Shown here: piece after piece, positions 9,001-24,000 of the stretch
How the letters are laid out: every line of letters begins with the position of its first letter
Position numbering within the stretch: position 1 is the stretch's first letter
Assembly (NCBI GenBank): GCA_045046875.1
Contig: JASFYY010000133.1
Span: 1 to 64,000 of the forward strand
Origin: Verrucomicrobiota bacterium
GTDB lineage: Bacteria > Verrucomicrobiota > Verrucomicrobiia > Verrucomicrobiales > DEV007
Length of the DNA: 64,000 bases
Reading direction: 5' to 3'
Position numbers: made by a program

Positions 9001-12000
9001 ACGGGTGCGCATTTGATCATGGAAGCAAAAACTCGTGAGGTTGTGGATTATATTAAGATGCATATCACAGATGAGAAAAAAAGGCCGCAATTGATAGGTT
9101 TTCCTCACGCGTCTCAAGGGGGCTTTGGCATGGCTGAACCAGAGGGCATCGCTTTTGATACTTTGTGTTTGTACGTCAATGGATGGCAGGGTTCGTTGGC
9201 CTATCATTTCCCCGATGGCTTTGATGCGCGGTATTGGAATGCTCTCGCCAAGGCTAACCGGTCGATCAGTCGATTTGAAGACCTGGTAATGAAGGGGGAT
9301 ACTCAAGTCCGCCACTCTTTCAAAATAGCGACTGCATTGCCAAAATTAGCACCCTCTGGGGGACGTTATTACCAAGTGGATGCTGAATCTTCGCTGATTT
9401 TCAGCCGTGAGTTTTCCCTTAAGCAACAAAGGTTGGTGGTGATTGCAAATGCTTGGAAGTATGGCGATGCTTTTGTGCACCTGAGTTTTGAAGGATTGCC
9501 TGAAGGCGAAAGTTTTGTTCTACGCGAACCTCTTTCGCAACGTTGTTTTGCTAACGATAAGGGGCAGGTGGAGCTTTCGGTCGAAGACTTAAAGCAGGGG
9601 GTGTTGTTGCATGTGGGGGCTTTGCGTTTTGGTTTTTTTCTACTCGAGCCATATCAGAAGGGCGAGGATTATGGGCTGATGATTAAACCTTCCCAAATGC
9701 AGGCAATGTTATCCTCATTTCGTCCGGCAATTTTGAAAGCAATAGAATTTGAGAAATCTTATCATGGGGAGAATGAGTGAAAGCTCGTTGTTGAAGGGGT
9801 GGAAGTCTGTGGTGAGGCTGAATTTGACTTTGTGTTATTTTATAAAACAATTATGAGATATTGAAAATCATGGCTGTCATAGTATGGCCGCTATGACAAA
9901 AAAATATATCTGCTGTTCCATGATTTCATTGTTAATCGGCTTGTTCCCTGTTCTGGGTTTCGCCGAAGAAAAGAGGGCGAACGAGCCGGGTTGGCAGACC
10001 TTGTTTAATGGCAAGGATTTGAAAAATTGGGATATTGTTATTGGTCAACGTGGGCCAACCCGGGTGAATGAAGATCCTGATAAACTTTTTCAAGTGCATG
10101 ATGGCATGGTGCACACCTACAAGGACACCAAAGAAAAGACTAAGGTCCAATATGGTTATTTTTTGACCAAGAAAAAATACTCTCATTATCACATGCGTTT
10201 TGAGTTCAAGTGGGGTAAGAAAAAATTTGAGCCACGGCTCAAAGCTGCGCGTGATGCGGGAGTATTGTATCACGTGGTAGGTGGGAAAAAGGTGTGGCCG
10301 AGAAGTTTGGAATTGCAGGTTGAGGAAAAGGGGATGGGGGATTTTCTCACTGTGTATGGCGCACAAGCTAAGACTACAGTGGATCCCCAATCGATCGACA
10401 AGAAGAGGAAGGGGAATGCACGGTTTAGATTGCCTGCTGAAGGAGGCGTTCCTTATGTTTCCGGTGGGCCGGGTGTTTACTGGGTTTATCGTTATCCGCA
10501 AGCGGCGAAAGAAGGGTGGAATACTTTTGAGCTGATCGTGCGAGGAGCTGAAAGCGCGGAGCACAGGGTGAACGGAGTCGTGGTGAACCGAGTGACTGAT
10601 CTGCGTCAGTTGGACAAAGATGGCAAAACCTGGATTCCACTGGAAGCAGGAAAAATTCTTTTTCAAGCAGAAGCGGCGGAAGCGTTTTATCGTAACATTG
10701 AGATCAAGGAGTTGTCACCTGATTCTGAATAATCGAAGGCAGCTAATAACAATGTCGAGAACCAAGGTGAAAACAGGGATGAATGAAATGAATATAAGAA
10801 AGGTTTGTTTGCTGTTTATTCTTGTATGGTGTGTTTGGAAAGCTCCCACGCGTGTTTTTGCTGATGATGAACAAGAATCTCTTTTTGCTGGCACCGGAAT
10901 CATCGATATCACTCCAGACCCGGACGTGCCGTTGAGTGGGCCGATCGGGGGTGGGGGTAAAGCTTTCCCGGTTCACGACCGGCTCTATGTTCGTGCACTG
11001 GCCATCAAGAGTGGTGATACCCGTGTGGTGTTTTGTATCGCGGATCTGACATTGATATCCACTCCGTTGCATGACCGTATTCGCGATTTGGTTCATCAGC
11101 GAAGCGGCTTACCCAAAAATCATTTATTGGTATCGGCGACCCATACTCATAATGCTCCGCGTGCAGTGAAACTGGAATTGGGGCCGGTGCACGAAGCGTA
11201 TAAAGATAGTCTGGTGACTTGGGTGGCTGATGCGGTGGTTATGGCTCTGGATAATCTGGAGCCAGCTAAAATCGGCTGGGCGTCGATCGATCAGGGGAAG
11301 TTTTGCCGCAATCGACGCTGGTTGGTGAAACCTGGCACACAGGCGGCCAACCCTTTTGGAGCAAAAACGGATTTGGCCAAAATGTATGGAGGACCCGGTA
11401 AAAATGGTATTCGTCCAGTGGGGCCAACGGATCCTGAGTTTTTTGTGTTATCCGCGCAACGTCCTGACGGCAGTCAGATCGGCTTGTTTGCTAATTTTAG
11501 TATTCATTATGGTTCCGGCGTAAAGGGTGGAGGCGTAAGTGCTGATTATTTTGGTTATTTTAGTCGTGAAGCGGAAAGTTTATTGGGTGGCACCAAGGAA
11601 AAATCAGTGGTTTCGATTATTTCCAATGGCACCAGTGGTGATATCGCGCCGGGAGGGAATCCCTCCAAGCTGGGTAAGAGCCTTGCGGCCGACGCAGTTG
11701 CTGTGGTCAAAAAAATCAAACATCAGGATCACTTGCCGATCACAGTGCGTGAGAGTGAGCTTTCGTTAAAGGTTCGACGTCCCAGTGCAAAACGTCTCGC
11801 CTGGGCCAAGGCGGTGAAAGCAGGGACTGCGGAAAAACCTGCTCCTCATTGGCAGGGAATTTACGCCAAACACACGCTGTGGCTGAATGATTATCCGGAC
11901 GAGGTGCCGGTGAGGCTGCAGGCGATTCGTTTGGGGAAGCTCGCCATCATGGCGTTGCCTTGTGAAGTTTACGCTGAAACGGGTTTAGCGATCAAGGCTC

Positions 12001-21000: not shown

Positions 21001-24000
21001 GATCAGTTGGACACGATTGGAGCCGAATGCGGGTTATATGATCGTAGAGAGTGCGGGCAAAATGCTCAATGCTCTGTGGCGGCGTAAAGATACAAAGGTA
21101 AAGCAATGATTAAACTCTTAGTATTAGAGAAGTCACTTCTGGAATCGGAACCTAGCCCTAGGGGGATGGCTCATAGCCGTTTGCTTTGTTTGGTGAGTGA
21201 GCGATTTTGGATAGTAATTAGCGTAGCACTTGCACTTGGTTGTTTAGCAGTGAACTCGGCAGATGCGGAGGACATACTTCCGCTGAAGATCGGAGCTGTC
21301 ACCAAGGTCATCAACCCTAAAATCGGTGATTGGGTTCAGTCGGCCAGCGTCAAAAAACGCGCGACGGAGATTCGTGGTAATCTGGAGGCAAATGGTCTCT
21401 ACTTGTCGGATGGTAAGATGCAGATACTGCTGGTTAGTTGCGATTTAGGTGGTCTTGAACCTCCTCGAGTAGTAGCAATGCGTGAGGCAATGGGGAAGGC
21501 TGCGGGGATTCCAGCTCGCAACATCATCATCTCTGCCACTCACACGCGCGGACCTGTGGTGTTGCGAAGCAATTACCTCATGCCGGTCGATAATGACTAC
21601 TTGGACAAGTTGCAAGCGTGGCTTGTCGACTTGGCAAAAGAGGTTGTTCAATCGGCACGCCCCGGGAAAATTGGATGGGGAAAGGGGACCGCTCAGATTG
21701 GCTACAATCGTCGCATCTGTTTTGCGGACGGCACGCACGTGATGCATGGTGATGCCAAGCGCAAGGATTTCACTGGATTAGAAGGACCCGATGACCCGCA
21801 ACACGTGGCACTGTTTGCAGCCGATGCTGACGGCAAGCTCATTGCGGTCATACAGCACAATACCACCCACCCTACGGTCACTTGGGGAGGCTCGGTATTC
21901 ACGGCTGACTTTCCCGGTGAATCGCGACGAATGCTGCGAGAAGAGCTGGGCAACATTCCCATGTTATACTTGAACGGGGCACAGGGGGATATCTCATGGC
22001 GAGATGCACTGAACCATCGTAAGGAAACTCCCGAGCAGTCGATTCAGCGACTTGGGCGTTTGATGGCTGACGAAACACTGAGGCTTTACAAGAACATCGA
22101 GTATCAAAAACATCCCGTATTGAAGCACGGCTATGAAGATCTCGCGGTCAAGGTGCGACTACCCAAACCGGAACGGCTGGTAGAGGCTCGTAAAGTATTG
22201 GCAAGAATTGACGCTGGAGAGAATATCCGGGGAATGAAAATGATAATGGCTTTCGGAGCGGTGCATCTGCAGGAATTGTTTGGAGAAAATCCGGTCGATA
22301 CTTTGCCGATTCATGTGGTTCGTATCGGCGACGTGGCGTTGGTGACTCAGCCTTGTGAGTTGTACAGCCAGTTTGCTTTGGACATCAAGCGTCGCAGTCC
22401 TGCGCAGATCACCGCAGTTGTGGGACTTGCGGATGGTTACTGCGGATATTGTCCGACGATTCACGGTATCCTGGGTGGCGGCTATACGGCAGATCCGATA
22501 TCCTGGACCCGACTGGAACCATACGCTGGTTATAAGATTGTGGAGAGCGCCGCTAAAACGCTCAACTCCTTGTGGCAGGGAGGGAAGTAGGACAAAGCTT
22601 TAAAATAAACAGAAATATTATTATGAATGACCATTTGGCGAAACTATCAAGGAAAAAGGCTGCTACCTCACGAGCTGGAATCAAGCGACGTGAATTTCTG
22701 ACTAAGAGCGTGGCAGTGGGCATTGCCGCTGGAACATCCTGCTTGGTCAATGATTCAGCCTATGCAGCTAAGCCGCTTGTGGCAGGAATGCCCAATGCGA
22801 AGAAACTTGGCTGGAGGGTTGGGTTTGCTACCTATTCATTCCGCAACGTCACGATTTTTGAAGCCTTAGAGAAAATCGCTGCAGTGGGTTTGTCTCACGC
22901 CGAACTGTTTGGCTGGCAAAAGTTGAGTCCGGCCAATCCCAATGTGACTCCAGAGGCAGGGCTGTCGAAGACCTTGCGCAAGGATCTTAAAAACAAGGCT
23001 GATGATCTAGGGGTGAAGATGATTGGCACTTATGCCCGGCTGAATAATCCTGACATGGCAAAATCCATATTCGAGTTCGCCGCCGAAATGAACTTCGAAG
23101 TGATCGTGGGGGAACCTATGGGGGAGATGTTGGATGTGGTTGAGGGGCTGACAAAAGAATTCGGAGTAGATCTCGCTATGCATAATCATGCGAAGCCATC
23201 GCCTTATTGGGATCCGGATGCCGGACTTGCTGTTTTAAAGGGCCGCGCCAAGTCGATGGGCCTCTGTTGTGATACAGGGCACTGGTGCCGGTCAGGTCTT
23301 GATCCGGTCAAGACGCTCAGCAAGGTTGCGTCCCGGGTGAAGACATTCCACTTGAAGGATCTAGAAGCGTTTGGCGTTCTGAAGTCGGAAGACGCGGTAT
23401 GGGGGCAAGGGGAGTGCCGCATTGCCGACATCCTAGCGGAAGTCAAAAAGCAGGGCATCCAGCGTCCCTACTTCAGTATCGAGTGGGAGCGAAATACCAG
23501 CGAGCCGCTTGAGACTCATGCCAAGTCGATTGCTTATTTCGAGGAAGTCGCGGGCAAGCTCATCGAATCTTGAAGGAGAGGTGTAATAACTGTGACCATG
23601 GTGAGCTTCAAGAAAAATACTTCTTCAATCCTAAGCTTGGTCGCATTTTTGCTTGTTTCGAGCAATGGGGGATATGCGCAGATTCCCCATCCTGATGACG
23701 CGCCTAAGGCGCTGTCGCCTGCAGAAAGCGTGAAGGCTTTCAAGCTTCCAGCAGGAATCAAAATCAAACTGCTGGCGAGCGAACCTTTAGTGGTGCAGCC
23801 GACGGGAGTGTGTTGGGATGAGTGGGGGCGCTTGTTTGTCTCCGAGCTACACGGGTACAATTTGGACGGCCAGTATGATATAGAGGAGCTGAATAAAACG
23901 GGCAAACTGGATATGAAGGTTCGGAGAATCCAGGCATCGGAGGAATCCAAAAAAAAAGCCGAAGAAAGAACCTATGGAGTGGTGAAACTACTGCTCGATA

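Follow-up and report, generated by a model that had tools for sequence, protein, structure and literature searches.

Human neutral ceramidase relies, as listed in a review (PMC6952831), on the catalytic residues His196, Arg257, Tyr579 and Tyr591. Two kinds of protein relevant to the locus studied here are also described: a purified TIGR02604-HEAT-cytochrome c protein reported to hydrolyse lactose with a Km of 1.8 mM (beta-galactosidase activity; PMC5342196), and DUF1080 and 'sugar phosphate isomerase' proteins reported as 3-keto-glycoside lyases/hydratases that act after oxidation by Gfo/Idh/MocA enzymes (bioRxiv 10.1101/2024.03.25.586180). A search of the literature found nothing in print on the family we address, ~430-residue proteins that comprise the neutral-ceramidase catalytic domain but no C-terminal Ig-like domain (hereafter mini-ceramidases). 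The 5.59-Mb genome of a Verrucomicrobiota bacterium encodes 37 of them, six in the 64,000-nucleotide stretch of DNA that was analysed (the window), and the genes beside and fused to them suggest action on sugars, probably amino sugars, rather than on membrane lipids or on sulfated glycans in particular.

The window cluster

Four of the six window mini-ceramidases lie in a cluster that runs on one strand from 7057 on and also encodes a DUF1080 protein, a xylose-isomerase-like protein and two each of sulfatases and DUF7133-cytochrome c proteins. The list below also takes in a regulator on the other strand and three genes further along the window:

5591..6970, minus strand: XylR-type regulator with XylR N-terminal, periplasmic-binding-like and AraC HTH parts (Pfam Peripla_BP_3, 1.3e-37; PBP1_XylR, 1.3e-23; HTH_18, 4.5e-16)
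7057..9780, plus strand: 907-aa protein, the cluster's first gene, no family match
9884..10732, plus strand: DUF1080/3-keto-disaccharide hydrolase family protein (PF06439, E 2.8e-28)
10752..13655, plus strand: mini-ceramidase~S1-type sulfatase fusion (Pfam Ceramidase_alk, E 2.4e-14; Sulfatase, E 2.3e-42)
13769..15178, plus strand: mini-ceramidase m1, or g04113 (family HMM; Ceramidase_alk 24 bits, under the 32.1 cut-off)
15224..16672, plus strand: S1-type sulfatase with leader (PF00884, E 1.1e-51; CTPSR motif in translation)
16686..19640, plus strand: DUF7133 six-bladed propeller, HEAT repeats and cytochrome c (PVC-type heme-binding CxxCH protein; PF23500, E 2.7e-140; HEAT_2; Cytochrom_C)
19652..21109, plus strand: mini-ceramidase m2 (family HMM, E 8.3e-137; H-T-H motif intact)
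21106..22590, plus strand: mini-ceramidase m3 (family HMM; no Pfam row)
22572..23573, plus strand: xylose-isomerase-like TIM barrel protein (AP_endonuc_2; PF01261, E 7.2e-14)
23592..26138, plus strand: second DUF7133-cytochrome c protein (PF23500, E 1.3e-91; Cytochrom_C; TIGR02604 and TIGR02603 above cut-off)
28146..29576, plus strand: further secreted mini-ceramidase (family HMM; Pfam 56.7 bits)
60473..61108, plus strand: DUF1080 protein, two genes upstream of the paralog at 61865 (PF06439, E 7.7e-37)
61865..63292, plus strand: further secreted mini-ceramidase (L020; family HMM)

The regulator, divergent from the cluster, is likely sugar-responsive, and one of the same architecture adjoins a four-copy mini-ceramidase cluster at another locus (L127). 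The 907-aa protein had no match in Pfam or NCBIfam, no sequence relative in the PDB and no BLASTP similarity to GHL10 neighbours from other loci; its residues ~390–865 resemble GHL10/GH42/GHL6 TIM-barrel models in the Atlas at TM 0.30–0.41, a lead only. The reading frame of the fusion is open from 10620 (database form, 955 aa), and its N-terminal Ceramidase_alk region (residues 91–344, 53.4 bits), preceded by a leader, is joined to a Sulfatase domain (residues 531–902, 145.8 bits) with a CMPSR sulfatase motif and SGSH_C. The database form of m1 starts at 13805 (457 aa), and the DUF7133 protein at 16686..19640 scores above cut-off for both TIGR02604 (252.8 bits) and TIGR02603 (129.1 bits). m2 and m3 are tandem duplicates sharing 64.7% identity, with Arg in m3 where m2 has the second His of H-T-H; a 79%-identical relative (L030) keeps the same cluster arrangement with a single copy, H-T-H included, in place of the pair. 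The AP_endonuc_2 protein matches the IolE-like TIGR04379 weakly (E 4.1e-8), far under cut-off. Outside the cluster, an RraA-like aldolase lies at 27301–27966, the paralog at 28146 is followed by two beta-helix proteins, and just past the window edge, near the paralog at 61865, come genes for an AP_endonuc_2 protein and for an aldehyde dehydrogenase.

Family extent, fold and active site

Our iterative HMM search of six-frame ORFs converged (33, 37, 37) on the same number of paralogs as the preliminary description had claimed. Its Pfam tally (17 with a row, 19 without) differs from ours, with 23 above the whole-protein cut-off, 10 under it and four without a match at E≤1e-3, which implies different thresholds. 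By a crude hydropathy rule, a hydrophobic leader precedes the fold in 35 paralogs, the other two being borderline, one with a Tat-like RRSFL start. Most of the 37 are surrounded by unrelated or housekeeping genes, and the whole family comprises 13,078 clusters at E≤1e-30.

The AF2 model of m1 (33 alignment rows; pLDDT 90.7, pTM 0.89) was matched well only by neutral ceramidases, both in Foldseek (2zws, E 1.1e-26, TMq 0.72; 4wgk, E 4.8e-23, TMq 0.69; next, 1.4e-3) and in VIA, where model residues 31–457 aligned over 385 positions with chain residues 2–488 of 630 of the top match (Z 37.2) and the model aligned with residues 100–619 of the human enzyme (Z 34.6; next match, Z 4.0). The predicted fold is thus that of the catalytic domain alone, as had been proposed. 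A profile of the six window paralogs likewise found the P. aeruginosa (E 1.1e-23) and human (1.8e-16) neutral ceramidases, pairing H133, H135, R195/R196, H244, E396, Y426 and Y438 of the family with H97, H99, R160, H204, E411, Y448 and Y460 of the former. H133, E396 and Y426 are invariant across all 37 paralogs, and 29 of these, like 15 of 26 copies from other genera, retain the full set of nine tracked positions; m1 has S at 195 of the NRR motif but retains R196, while one catalytic or ligand residue is missing from m3 and throughout one subfamily. In the second motif, the histidine invariant throughout the family is H232 on the 457-aa scale, equivalent to H244 when numbering begins at 13769; it had first been given as H229. 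Homology, fold and residue conservation support the 37 proteins as neutral-ceramidase catalytic-domain homologs with the catalytic constellation kept, in which a zinc-bound water would attack a carbonyl through ceramidase-type His/His/Glu/Tyr and His/Arg/Tyr sets.

Fusion partners and gene order

The three fusions already named are all present, and we found a fourth, with Laminin_G_3:

window (10752..13655): Cer~Sulfatase
L015:6581-8599, minus strand: 3keto-disac_hyd~Cer
L029:4772-8707, minus strand: Cer~DUF7133~HEAT~CytC
L013:4480-6642, minus strand: Cer~Laminin_G_3

Among 95 long m1 relatives, 84 carry DUF7133, 34 Laminin_G_3 and 14 DUF1080, with single cases of GH32, GHL10, GH95-like and CN_hydrolase, besides PQQ_2 fusions and an FAD oxidoreductase fusion. 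Long relatives of the ceramidase domain of the window fusion have, among the 120 matches listed, DUF7133 in 108 and a xylose-isomerase-like barrel in three, and 58 mid-length family members have Laminin_G_3 (30), a strong DUF1080 match (five), RidA (two) and GH16, BNR_2, ThuA and an SCP2 lipid-transfer domain (one each). ConA-like and DUF1080 domains recur as partners beside DUF7133, and Laminin_G_3, DUF1080, DUF7133, GH16, GH32, GHL10 and xylose-isomerase-like partners bear out the earlier view of a sugar instead of a lipid setting.

The recurrent partners are sugar-oxidising modules. DUF7133 is fused or directly downstream on the same strand at 22 of 80 m1-ortholog loci and, in this genome, lies beside paralogs at 5/30 loci versus 1.64 expected (P=0.025); the reported neighbours within two genes (Sulfatase 8/37, DUF7133 8/37) were reproduced, and PQQ_2 genes also occur among them. 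An AF2 model of the DUF7133 propeller from 16686..19640 (pLDDT 88, pTM 0.91) gave, as its best ten VIA matches, only PQQ sugar dehydrogenases or AA12 (Z 23.2–25.7). No genome-wide link to DUF7133 emerged in a 121-genome phylum sample (family in 30 genomes, DUF7133 in only five, both only in this genome) or in 81 Planctomycetota genomes, where the rank correlation fell from 0.35 to 0.08 once genome size was controlled, and one Poribacteria genome has an m1 ortholog but no DUF7133.

Candidate substrates

Independent support for the amide-bearing sugar substrate proposed earlier comes from a leaderless, cytoplasmic sister clade, in which a DegT aminotransferase, a Gfo/Idh/MocA enzyme and a mini-ceramidase follow one another on one strand at 13 loci. 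The 17 closest loci span 13 genera, nine of which have this operon. The clade shares only 25–29% identity with any of the 37 paralogs, and a search at E≤1e-60 recovered no member of it in this genome. At 20 loci from other genera, an aminotransferase lies within three genes in seven and Gfo/Idh/MocA is directly adjacent in seven; amine chemistry is also represented nearby by a PIG-L de-N-acetylase at L129, a GNAT in Poribacteria and, in this genome, a CN_hydrolase adjoining L008. In the leaderless clade, the mini-ceramidase would free an amine, which the DegT-type aminotransferase would turn into a keto sugar that the Gfo/Idh/MocA enzyme would reduce or oxidise, and by analogy the same logic may extend to the secreted copies. 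We tentatively favour, at somewhat short of even chances, zinc de-N-acylases of amino-sugar-containing glycans that feed oxidative sugar catabolism. The 37 exported hydrolases would then remove N-acyl groups from amino sugars in glycans or glycoconjugates, not from ceramide, serving an accessory, 'unmasking' function alongside a periplasmic toolkit for oxidative sugar breakdown made up of DUF7133-HEAT-cytochrome c proteins, DUF1080 proteins and xylose-isomerase-like lyases and, in the window locus, sulfatases.

Lactonases or esterases, the next candidates, seem unlikely. Here a dehydrogenase (DUF7133-cytochrome c, Gfo/Idh/MocA or a PQQ-type propeller) would oxidise an aldose to a lactone for the zinc hydrolase to open to a sugar acid; the zinc-water chemistry could act on esters too, not on amides alone, and oxidoreduction is common to the recurrent partners (PQQ-like DUF7133, adjacent Gfo/Idh/MocA, PQQ_2, the FAD oxidoreductase fusion). 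Sugar-acid genes lie nearby (MR_MLE and MFS beside L010; KDPG aldolase at L114; Amidohydro_2 at L115 and L125; the RraA-like aldolase), and several of these settings suit a sugar-acid or lactone substrate better than an amide. However, DegT in the three-gene operon and the RidA, CN_hydrolase, GNAT and PIG-L partners speak for chemistry on nitrogen, the amidase constellation appears unchanged, and we know of no lactonase in the neutral-ceramidase fold.

Lipid amidases proper, that is, ceramidases or (glyco)sphingolipid N-deacylases, are less probable again. At the window locus, their targets would be sulfated glycosphingolipids or other N-acyl lipids, processed together with a sulfatase and a beta-galactosidase-like DUF7133 protein. 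All neutral ceramidase catalytic residues appear to be kept, one mid-length member carries SCP2, the head group of a glycolipid could be bound by a lectin-like domain, genes for GDSL 'lipase/acylhydrolase' proteins occur as neighbours (L007, L018 and window 2–1369), and beta-galactosidase activity is reported for one DUF7133-HEAT-cytochrome c protein (PMC5342196). Yet the NCBIfam neutral-ceramidase equivalog gave 19 bits for the fusion against a 1200-bit cut-off and no match to m1, m2 or m3, one lipid class could hardly account for 37 secreted paralogs with almost only carbohydrate-type fusions, and the cytoplasmic relatives lie beside sugar kinases, DeoR regulators, aldolases and sugar aminotransferases.

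Of the preliminary interpretation, the sugar setting and the amide-bearing sugar gained support, whereas the tie to sulfated polysaccharides did not. N-acyl or N-sulfo removal in concert with sulfatases draws on the window cluster, with its fusion and second sulfatase among four family members, on its conservation in L030, on the gene-wise sulfatase count (8/37 versus 3.37 expected, p=0.017), on Cer~sulfatase fusions in two of the 58 mid-length members and on SGSH_C in the fused sulfatase. Per locus, however, sulfatase adjacency is at chance (5/30 versus 3.22 expected, P=0.22), and the paralogs next to a sulfatase are spread across the family tree and form no clade. Such fusions number 0/95 among long m1 relatives and 2/120 among the listed long relatives of the window fusion's ceramidase domain, the two being the window protein itself (P0216) and an 81%-identical relative (P0217). 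A sulfatase lies within 2.5 kb at just 5/80 ortholog loci, the orthologs come from soil, peat, groundwater, freshwater, bioreactor and sponge-associated genomes, and SGSH_C, present on most sulfatases scanned in this genome, is uninformative on N-sulfo groups. The sulfated-glycan link of the family is thus weak, and dedication to sulfated-polysaccharide breakdown is the least probable reading.

Compared with known systems, the mini-ceramidases lack the C-terminal domain that every characterised neutral ceramidase has, which also argues against lipid substrates, and the DUF7133 propeller beside them resembles, in its predicted model, PQQ sugar dehydrogenases.

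A large family of neutral ceramidase catalytic domains

An iterative HMM search over six-frame ORFs of the 5.59-Mb genome (163 contigs) converged on 37 mini-ceramidase paralogs, the number given in the preliminary description, with the stand-alone members 404–585 aa long. By a crude hydropathy rule a hydrophobic leader precedes the fold in 35 of them, the remaining two being borderline. Against the Pfam model PF04734 (Ceramidase_alk), 23 score over the cut-off, 10 below it and four have no match, leaving 14 of the 37 that do not reach it, and the matches are restricted to the first half of the model (profile positions 1–260 of 509). 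The NCBIfam neutral-ceramidase equivalog NF041649 gave 19 bits for the Ceramidase_alk~Sulfatase fusion of the window, against a cut-off of 1200, and no match for m1, m2 or m3, the stand-alone mini-ceramidases of the same cluster. The single m1 sequence matched nothing among PDB sequences and, in an Atlas search, nothing outside its own family; a profile of the six window paralogs matched P. aeruginosa neutral ceramidase (PaCD; 2zws_A) at E 1.1e-23 and the human enzyme (4wgk_A) at E 1.8e-16.

The AF2 model of m1 (pLDDT 90.7, pTM 0.89) had neutral ceramidases as its only structural matches, in Foldseek (E 1.1e-26 to 1.9e-21; next match 1.4e-3) as in VIA (Z 37.2, rmsd 3.0, 385 residues aligned, and Z 34.6, rmsd 2.5, 377 aligned; next Z 4.0). 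Because the alignment spans model residues 31–457 against 2–488 of the 630-residue bacterial chain (100–619 in human), the C-terminal Ig-like domain is absent from mini-ceramidases, the modelled protein ending with the catalytic domain, in agreement with the fold first proposed. A profile of all 37 paralogs matched 40,763 of 1.84 billion representative clusters at E<=1e-3 and still 13,078 at E<=1e-30. Single genomes can hold at least 20 copies, in four proteins (P0329, P0330, P0331, P0342) two or three mini-ceramidase domains follow one another, and the databases label family members 'hypothetical protein' or 'neutral ceramidase'.

Aligning the profile of the six window paralogs onto PaCD, whose zinc ligands we take to be H97, H204, E411 and Y448, placed H133-T-H135 of m1 (numbered from position 13769) on H97-T-H99, the N-R-R motif on N159-R160, H244 on H204, E396 on E411, Y426 on Y448 and Y438 on Y460, equivalences that come from an HMM sequence alignment and not from superposition. 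H133, E396 and Y426 are invariant in all 37 paralogs, the other active-site positions are kept in 35–36, and the full nine-position signature is found in 29. Judged from this alignment, mini-ceramidases appear to have kept the zinc-ligand and catalytic His/Arg/Tyr set of neutral ceramidase. A review names His196, Arg257, Tyr579 and Tyr591 as the catalytic residues of the human enzyme, and describes its pocket as narrow and hydrophobic (PMC6952831).

Two departures from this pattern were seen. In m3, a tandem duplicate of m2 with 64.7% identity, Arg replaces the second His of H-T-H, the position of PaCD His99 and human His196; the syntenic relative L030 has a single copy, with its HTH intact, and m3 may be an inactive or altered copy. 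Pro at the H244 position, equivalent to the PaCD ligand His204, marks a conserved subfamily represented in this genome by L023:6268-7752 (+) and elsewhere by loci L123, L126, L127 (three copies) and L128:2769-4199. It adjoins Gfo/Idh/MocA and xylose-isomerase-like genes, one L127 cluster comprising four family copies, and its Pro would reflect either a local alignment shift or different metal binding.

The window cluster and its DUF7133-cytochrome c partner

The segment 10752–22590 is part of an eleven-gene plus-strand run, 7057–26138, with a divergent XylR/AraC-type regulator ahead of it. Directly upstream of the regulator lies a four-gene phosphate-type ABC transporter (2080–5570, +; PBP_like_2, two BPD_transp_1, ABC_tran).

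Genes of the cluster and further family members in the window
7057–9780, +: 907-aa protein, first gene of the cluster; no family
second in the cluster, +: DUF1080 (3-keto-disaccharide hydrolase family) protein
10752–13655, +: Ceramidase_alk~Sulfatase fusion, third in the cluster
13769–15178, +: mini-ceramidase m1, fourth in the cluster
15224–16672, +: sulfatase, fifth in the cluster, after m1
16686–19640, +: DUF7133-HEAT-cytochrome c protein, after the sulfatase
19652–21109, +: mini-ceramidase m2, after the first DUF7133 gene
21106–22590, +: mini-ceramidase m3, after m2
after m3, +: xylose-isomerase-like barrel
23592–26138, +: second DUF7133-cytochrome c protein, last of the cluster
28146–29576 and 61865–63292: further family members

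Both sulfatases of the cluster are S1 enzymes by PF00884 (cut-off 25), with 145.8 bits for the fusion (residues ~531–1000) and 176.3 bits for 15224–16672, and their translations contain the C-x-P-x-R formylglycine motif as CMPSR and CTPSR respectively. A sulfatase elsewhere in the window (34308–35792, −) is one open frame whose PF00884 match falls in two pieces (profile positions 2–99 and 155–300), and part of its core may be missing or replaced. The 907-aa protein matched nothing by sequence in Pfam, NCBIfam or the PDB; its residues ~390–865 gave Atlas structure leads to GHL10/GH42/GHL6 TIM barrels at TM 0.30–0.41. GHL10 proteins are recurrent neighbours or fusion partners of the family in other genomes, and BLASTP found no similarity between them and the 907-aa protein. 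The second half of the window also holds a 1300-aa protein without family (37202–41104, −), an rve-type integrase of an IS element (44383–45171, +), a 1394-aa NACHT-domain protein (54852–59036, −) and, at 49288–53177 (+), the usual PVC pair of a DUF1549/DUF1553 (PSCyt2/PSD1) gene and then a DUF1501 gene; with about 69 genomic copies by local HMM, DUF1501 is not enriched near mini-ceramidases in this genome.

The two DUF7133 proteins of the cluster (NCBI 'PVC-type heme-binding CxxCH protein') scored 252.8 (16686–19640) and 193.5 bits (23592–26138) on TIGR02604 (cut-off 122.2), and 129.1 and 102.2 bits on TIGR02603 (cut-off 68.15), and a CVACH motif is present in translation. The DUF7133 propeller has no sequence-level match in the PDB. 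In Foldseek (E 8e-9 and up) its AF2 model (pLDDT 88, pTM 0.91) came nearest to PQQ-dependent sugar dehydrogenases and AA12 enzymes, which also made up the whole VIA top ten at Z 23.2–25.7, a likeness of small margin because propeller lactonases follow at Z about 22. One purified protein of this TIGR02604/DUF7133-HEAT-cytochrome c architecture hydrolysed lactose with a Km of 1.8 mM (PMC5342196), a taxonomic paper ranks TIGR02604, DUF1080 and PF01408 among putative glycosidase families that CAZy does not include (PMC7397252), and a preprint has DUF1080 proteins and 'sugar phosphate isomerases' acting as 3-keto-glycoside lyases/hydratases after C3 oxidation by Gfo/Idh/MocA (bioRxiv 10.1101/2024.03.25.586180). 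The window cluster thus has the appearance of an oxidative glycoside-cleaving locus to which sulfatases and mini-ceramidases have been added.

For the family as such we favour zinc-hydrolase chemistry on sugar-linked substrates, tentatively and at a little under an even chance. A lactonase or esterase that partners sugar dehydrogenases would suit the same propeller neighbours and is unlikely; hints of nitrogen chemistry come from a carbon–nitrogen hydrolase gene that directly adjoins one paralog of this genome (L008:4349-5671, −), from a family member fused to a carbon–nitrogen hydrolase (P0188) and from two fused to RidA, an imine/enamine deaminase (P0421, P0447).

Gene neighbourhoods and fusions across genomes

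The fusions to sulfatase, DUF1080 and DUF7133-HEAT-cytochrome c named in the preliminary description are all present in this genome, and there is a fourth, with Laminin_G_3. Among the best 150 of the 40,763 family representatives, 49 are shorter than 560 aa, 53 have 560–1000 aa, seven 1000–1400 aa and 41 at least 1400 aa. Pfam analysis of 58 of them (560–1250 aa) found Laminin_G_3 in 30, strong DUF1080 in five, DUF7133 in three, sulfatase in two and RidA in two, with GH16, BNR_2, ThuA, a xylose-isomerase-like barrel, SCP2 and others once each. DUF7133 was by far the commonest partner in longer proteins: 84 of 95 m1 relatives of at least 822 aa carry it (Laminin_G_3 34, DUF1080 14, sulfatase 0), as do 108 of the 120 long relatives listed for the ceramidase domain of the window's fusion, among which sulfatase occurs in two, the window's own protein and one 81% identical to it.

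The m1 orthogroup (49–79% identity) extends over Verrucomicrobiota, Planctomycetota (including Singulisphaera acidiphila and Paludisphaera soli), Poribacteria and Armatimonadota, from sources that include groundwater, soil, lakes, bioreactors and sponges. Of 80 loci, all from this one orthogroup and scored on all ORFs, 22 had DUF7133 either immediately downstream on the same strand or within the mini-ceramidase reading frame, and 29 had it anywhere in the stretch examined. The Poribacteria ortholog lies between a GHL10-like gene and GNAT, aldo-keto reductase and PhyH genes, in a block conserved over L070–L079 and L083 (zinc alcohol dehydrogenase, PhyH dioxygenase, GHL10-like protein, mini-ceramidase, GNAT, aldo-keto reductase, PhyH-HEAT protein, ABC exporter, Ldh_2, Gfo/Idh/MocA), and the one Poribacteria genome checked had no DUF7133. 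In a sample of 121 Verrucomicrobiota genomes the family occurred in 30 and DUF7133 in five, with both only in the present genome. Among 81 Planctomycetota genomes, 31 have the family, 15 of these with fewer than five DUF7133 candidates, and the rank correlation of the family with per-genome DUF7133 candidate numbers (0.35) fell to a partial 0.08 with genome size controlled, so that family count tracks DUF7133 candidates only via genome size. The two surveys therefore confine the DUF7133 coupling, strong as it is, to particular gene pairs and fusions; it does not hold for the family as a whole.

A true lipid amidase would accord with the neutral ceramidase fold and active-site set, and we consider it rather improbable: where neutral ceramidases serve as the comparison, the fusions and operons of mini-ceramidases involve carbohydrate and oxidoreductase modules and not lipid genes.

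The least probable of these alternatives is a function specific to sulfated glycans, to which the preliminary description had restricted the family. We reproduced its gene-wise count of a sulfatase within two genes of eight of the 37 paralogs (3.37 expected, p=0.017), half of these cases coming from the window cluster alone. When each of the 30 loci was counted once and locus positions were permuted, sulfatase adjacency was 5/30 against 3.22 expected (P=0.22); the corresponding values were 5/30 for DUF7133 (1.64 expected, P=0.025) and 4/30 for the xylose-isomerase-like family (1.06 expected, P=0.025). These values rest on greedy longest-ORF gene calls (4480 genes) and on neighbour families defined by domain-trimmed local HMMs, which counted 111 sulfatases against 116 PF00884 matches in the genome. 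Moreover, the sulfatase-adjacent paralogs are scattered across the family tree, a sulfatase lies within 2.5 kb in just five of the 80 m1-ortholog loci, and the neighbours of the 37 are mostly unrelated genes (e.g. dnaA, citrate synthase, histidinol dehydrogenase).

A leaderless sister clade bears on sugar-linked substrates from another side. Twenty loci of the phylum, taken from other genera, hold 26 family ORFs, 13 of which have no leader and start right at the fold; these leaderless members share 25–29% identity with any paralog of this genome, in which the clade was not found at E<=1e-60. Of the same twenty loci, seven have Gfo/Idh/MocA as the adjacent same-strand gene, seven have aminotransferases (DegT, class III, class V) no more than three genes away, and five have FGGY sugar kinases together with DeoR regulators and aldolases. 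With one leaderless protein as query, a broader search recovered the clade from 33 of 251 genomes. The order DegT aminotransferase, Gfo/Idh/MocA, mini-ceramidase was fixed in 13 of the 17 closest loci (nine of 13 genera), with DegT only and GFO only in one further locus each, and 13 more distant loci had neither within 1.5 kb. This trio would meet the needs of a deacylate–transaminate–reduce route acting on N-acyl amino sugars or aminocyclitols, and it is the best independent support for amide-bearing sugars as substrates, drawn from relatives and not from the 37 secreted copies themselves. The original proposal, zinc amidohydrolases acting on amide-bearing sugars in sulfated-polysaccharide breakdown, is favoured in part, by the sugar setting and the DegT operon of leaderless relatives; its restriction to sulfated polysaccharides is not supported.

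Meaning and comparison with known systems

Within a known superfamily, mini-ceramidases are a variant that consists of the catalytic domain only, is already covered by Pfam and NCBI names and has no studied member; it is very improbable that they are ceramidases as the term is normally used, which corrects the habit of annotating them as neutral ceramidase. Our searches found no paper on the family, or tying it to glycans, Planctomycetota or Verrucomicrobiota; supplementary proteomic and transcriptomic tables of fucoidan and Planctomycetota papers could mention members. A broader view, possible and still doubtful, is that these homologs form a very large class of carbohydrate de-N-acylases that has so far escaped recognition. 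The secreted ones, fused to or beside quinohaemoprotein-like DUF7133-cytochrome c sugar oxidases and ConA-like modules, would belong to a periplasmic oxidative glycan-dismantling machinery of Planctomycetota, Verrucomicrobiota and Poribacteria, and the cytoplasmic ones would start a deacylate–transaminate–reduce route from N-acyl amino sugars to ordinary sugars. In oceans and soils alike, Planctomycetota and Verrucomicrobiota play a major part in degrading complex glycans, and a large share of their expanded gene content has no assigned chemistry. If mini-ceramidases are amino-sugar de-N-acylases tied to oxidative sugar catabolism, they would be a new enzyme class for catalogues of carbohydrate-active enzymes, offer a way into the DUF7133-cytochrome c proteins, which are just as unexplained, and bear on amide-nitrogen turnover in organic matter.

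With the PF04734 neutral ceramidases PaCD (PDB 2ZWS/2ZXC) and human ASAH2 (PDB 4WGK), mini-ceramidases share common homology, the catalytic fold, seven aligned active-site residues and export. They differ in identity (12–20%), in lacking the Ig-like domain, with the match stopping at residue 488 of the 630-residue chain or 619 in human, and in copy number, with 37 per genome here.

Zinc-dependent carbohydrate de-N-acetylases are known from CAZy families CE4, CE9, CE11 and CE14/PIG-L. Their reaction type, in which metal-activated water takes the N-acyl group off an amino sugar, is the one that would apply to mini-ceramidases, as a functional analogy only; to our knowledge their folds are unrelated. 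In locus L129, one mini-ceramidase has a PIG-L gene two genes away.

Lac161_ORF7 (GenPept AGW45552) has the architecture of the protein at 16686–19640 and of the dominant fusion partner of the family; it was reported as lactose-hydrolysing, with no mini-ceramidase attached (PMC5342196). The published 3-keto clusters, so far as the accessible part of the preprint describes them, combine Gfo/Idh/MocA, a 'sugar phosphate isomerase' lyase and a DUF1080 lyase/hydratase, with no mention there of a ceramidase-like hydrolase (bioRxiv 10.1101/2024.03.25.586180). Their oxidoreductase is Gfo/Idh/MocA, and that beside mini-ceramidases is DUF7133-cytochrome c in the window and Gfo/Idh/MocA elsewhere. Like these oxidative 3-keto glycoside-cleaving clusters, the window cluster and many related loci contain DUF1080 and xylose-isomerase-like genes.
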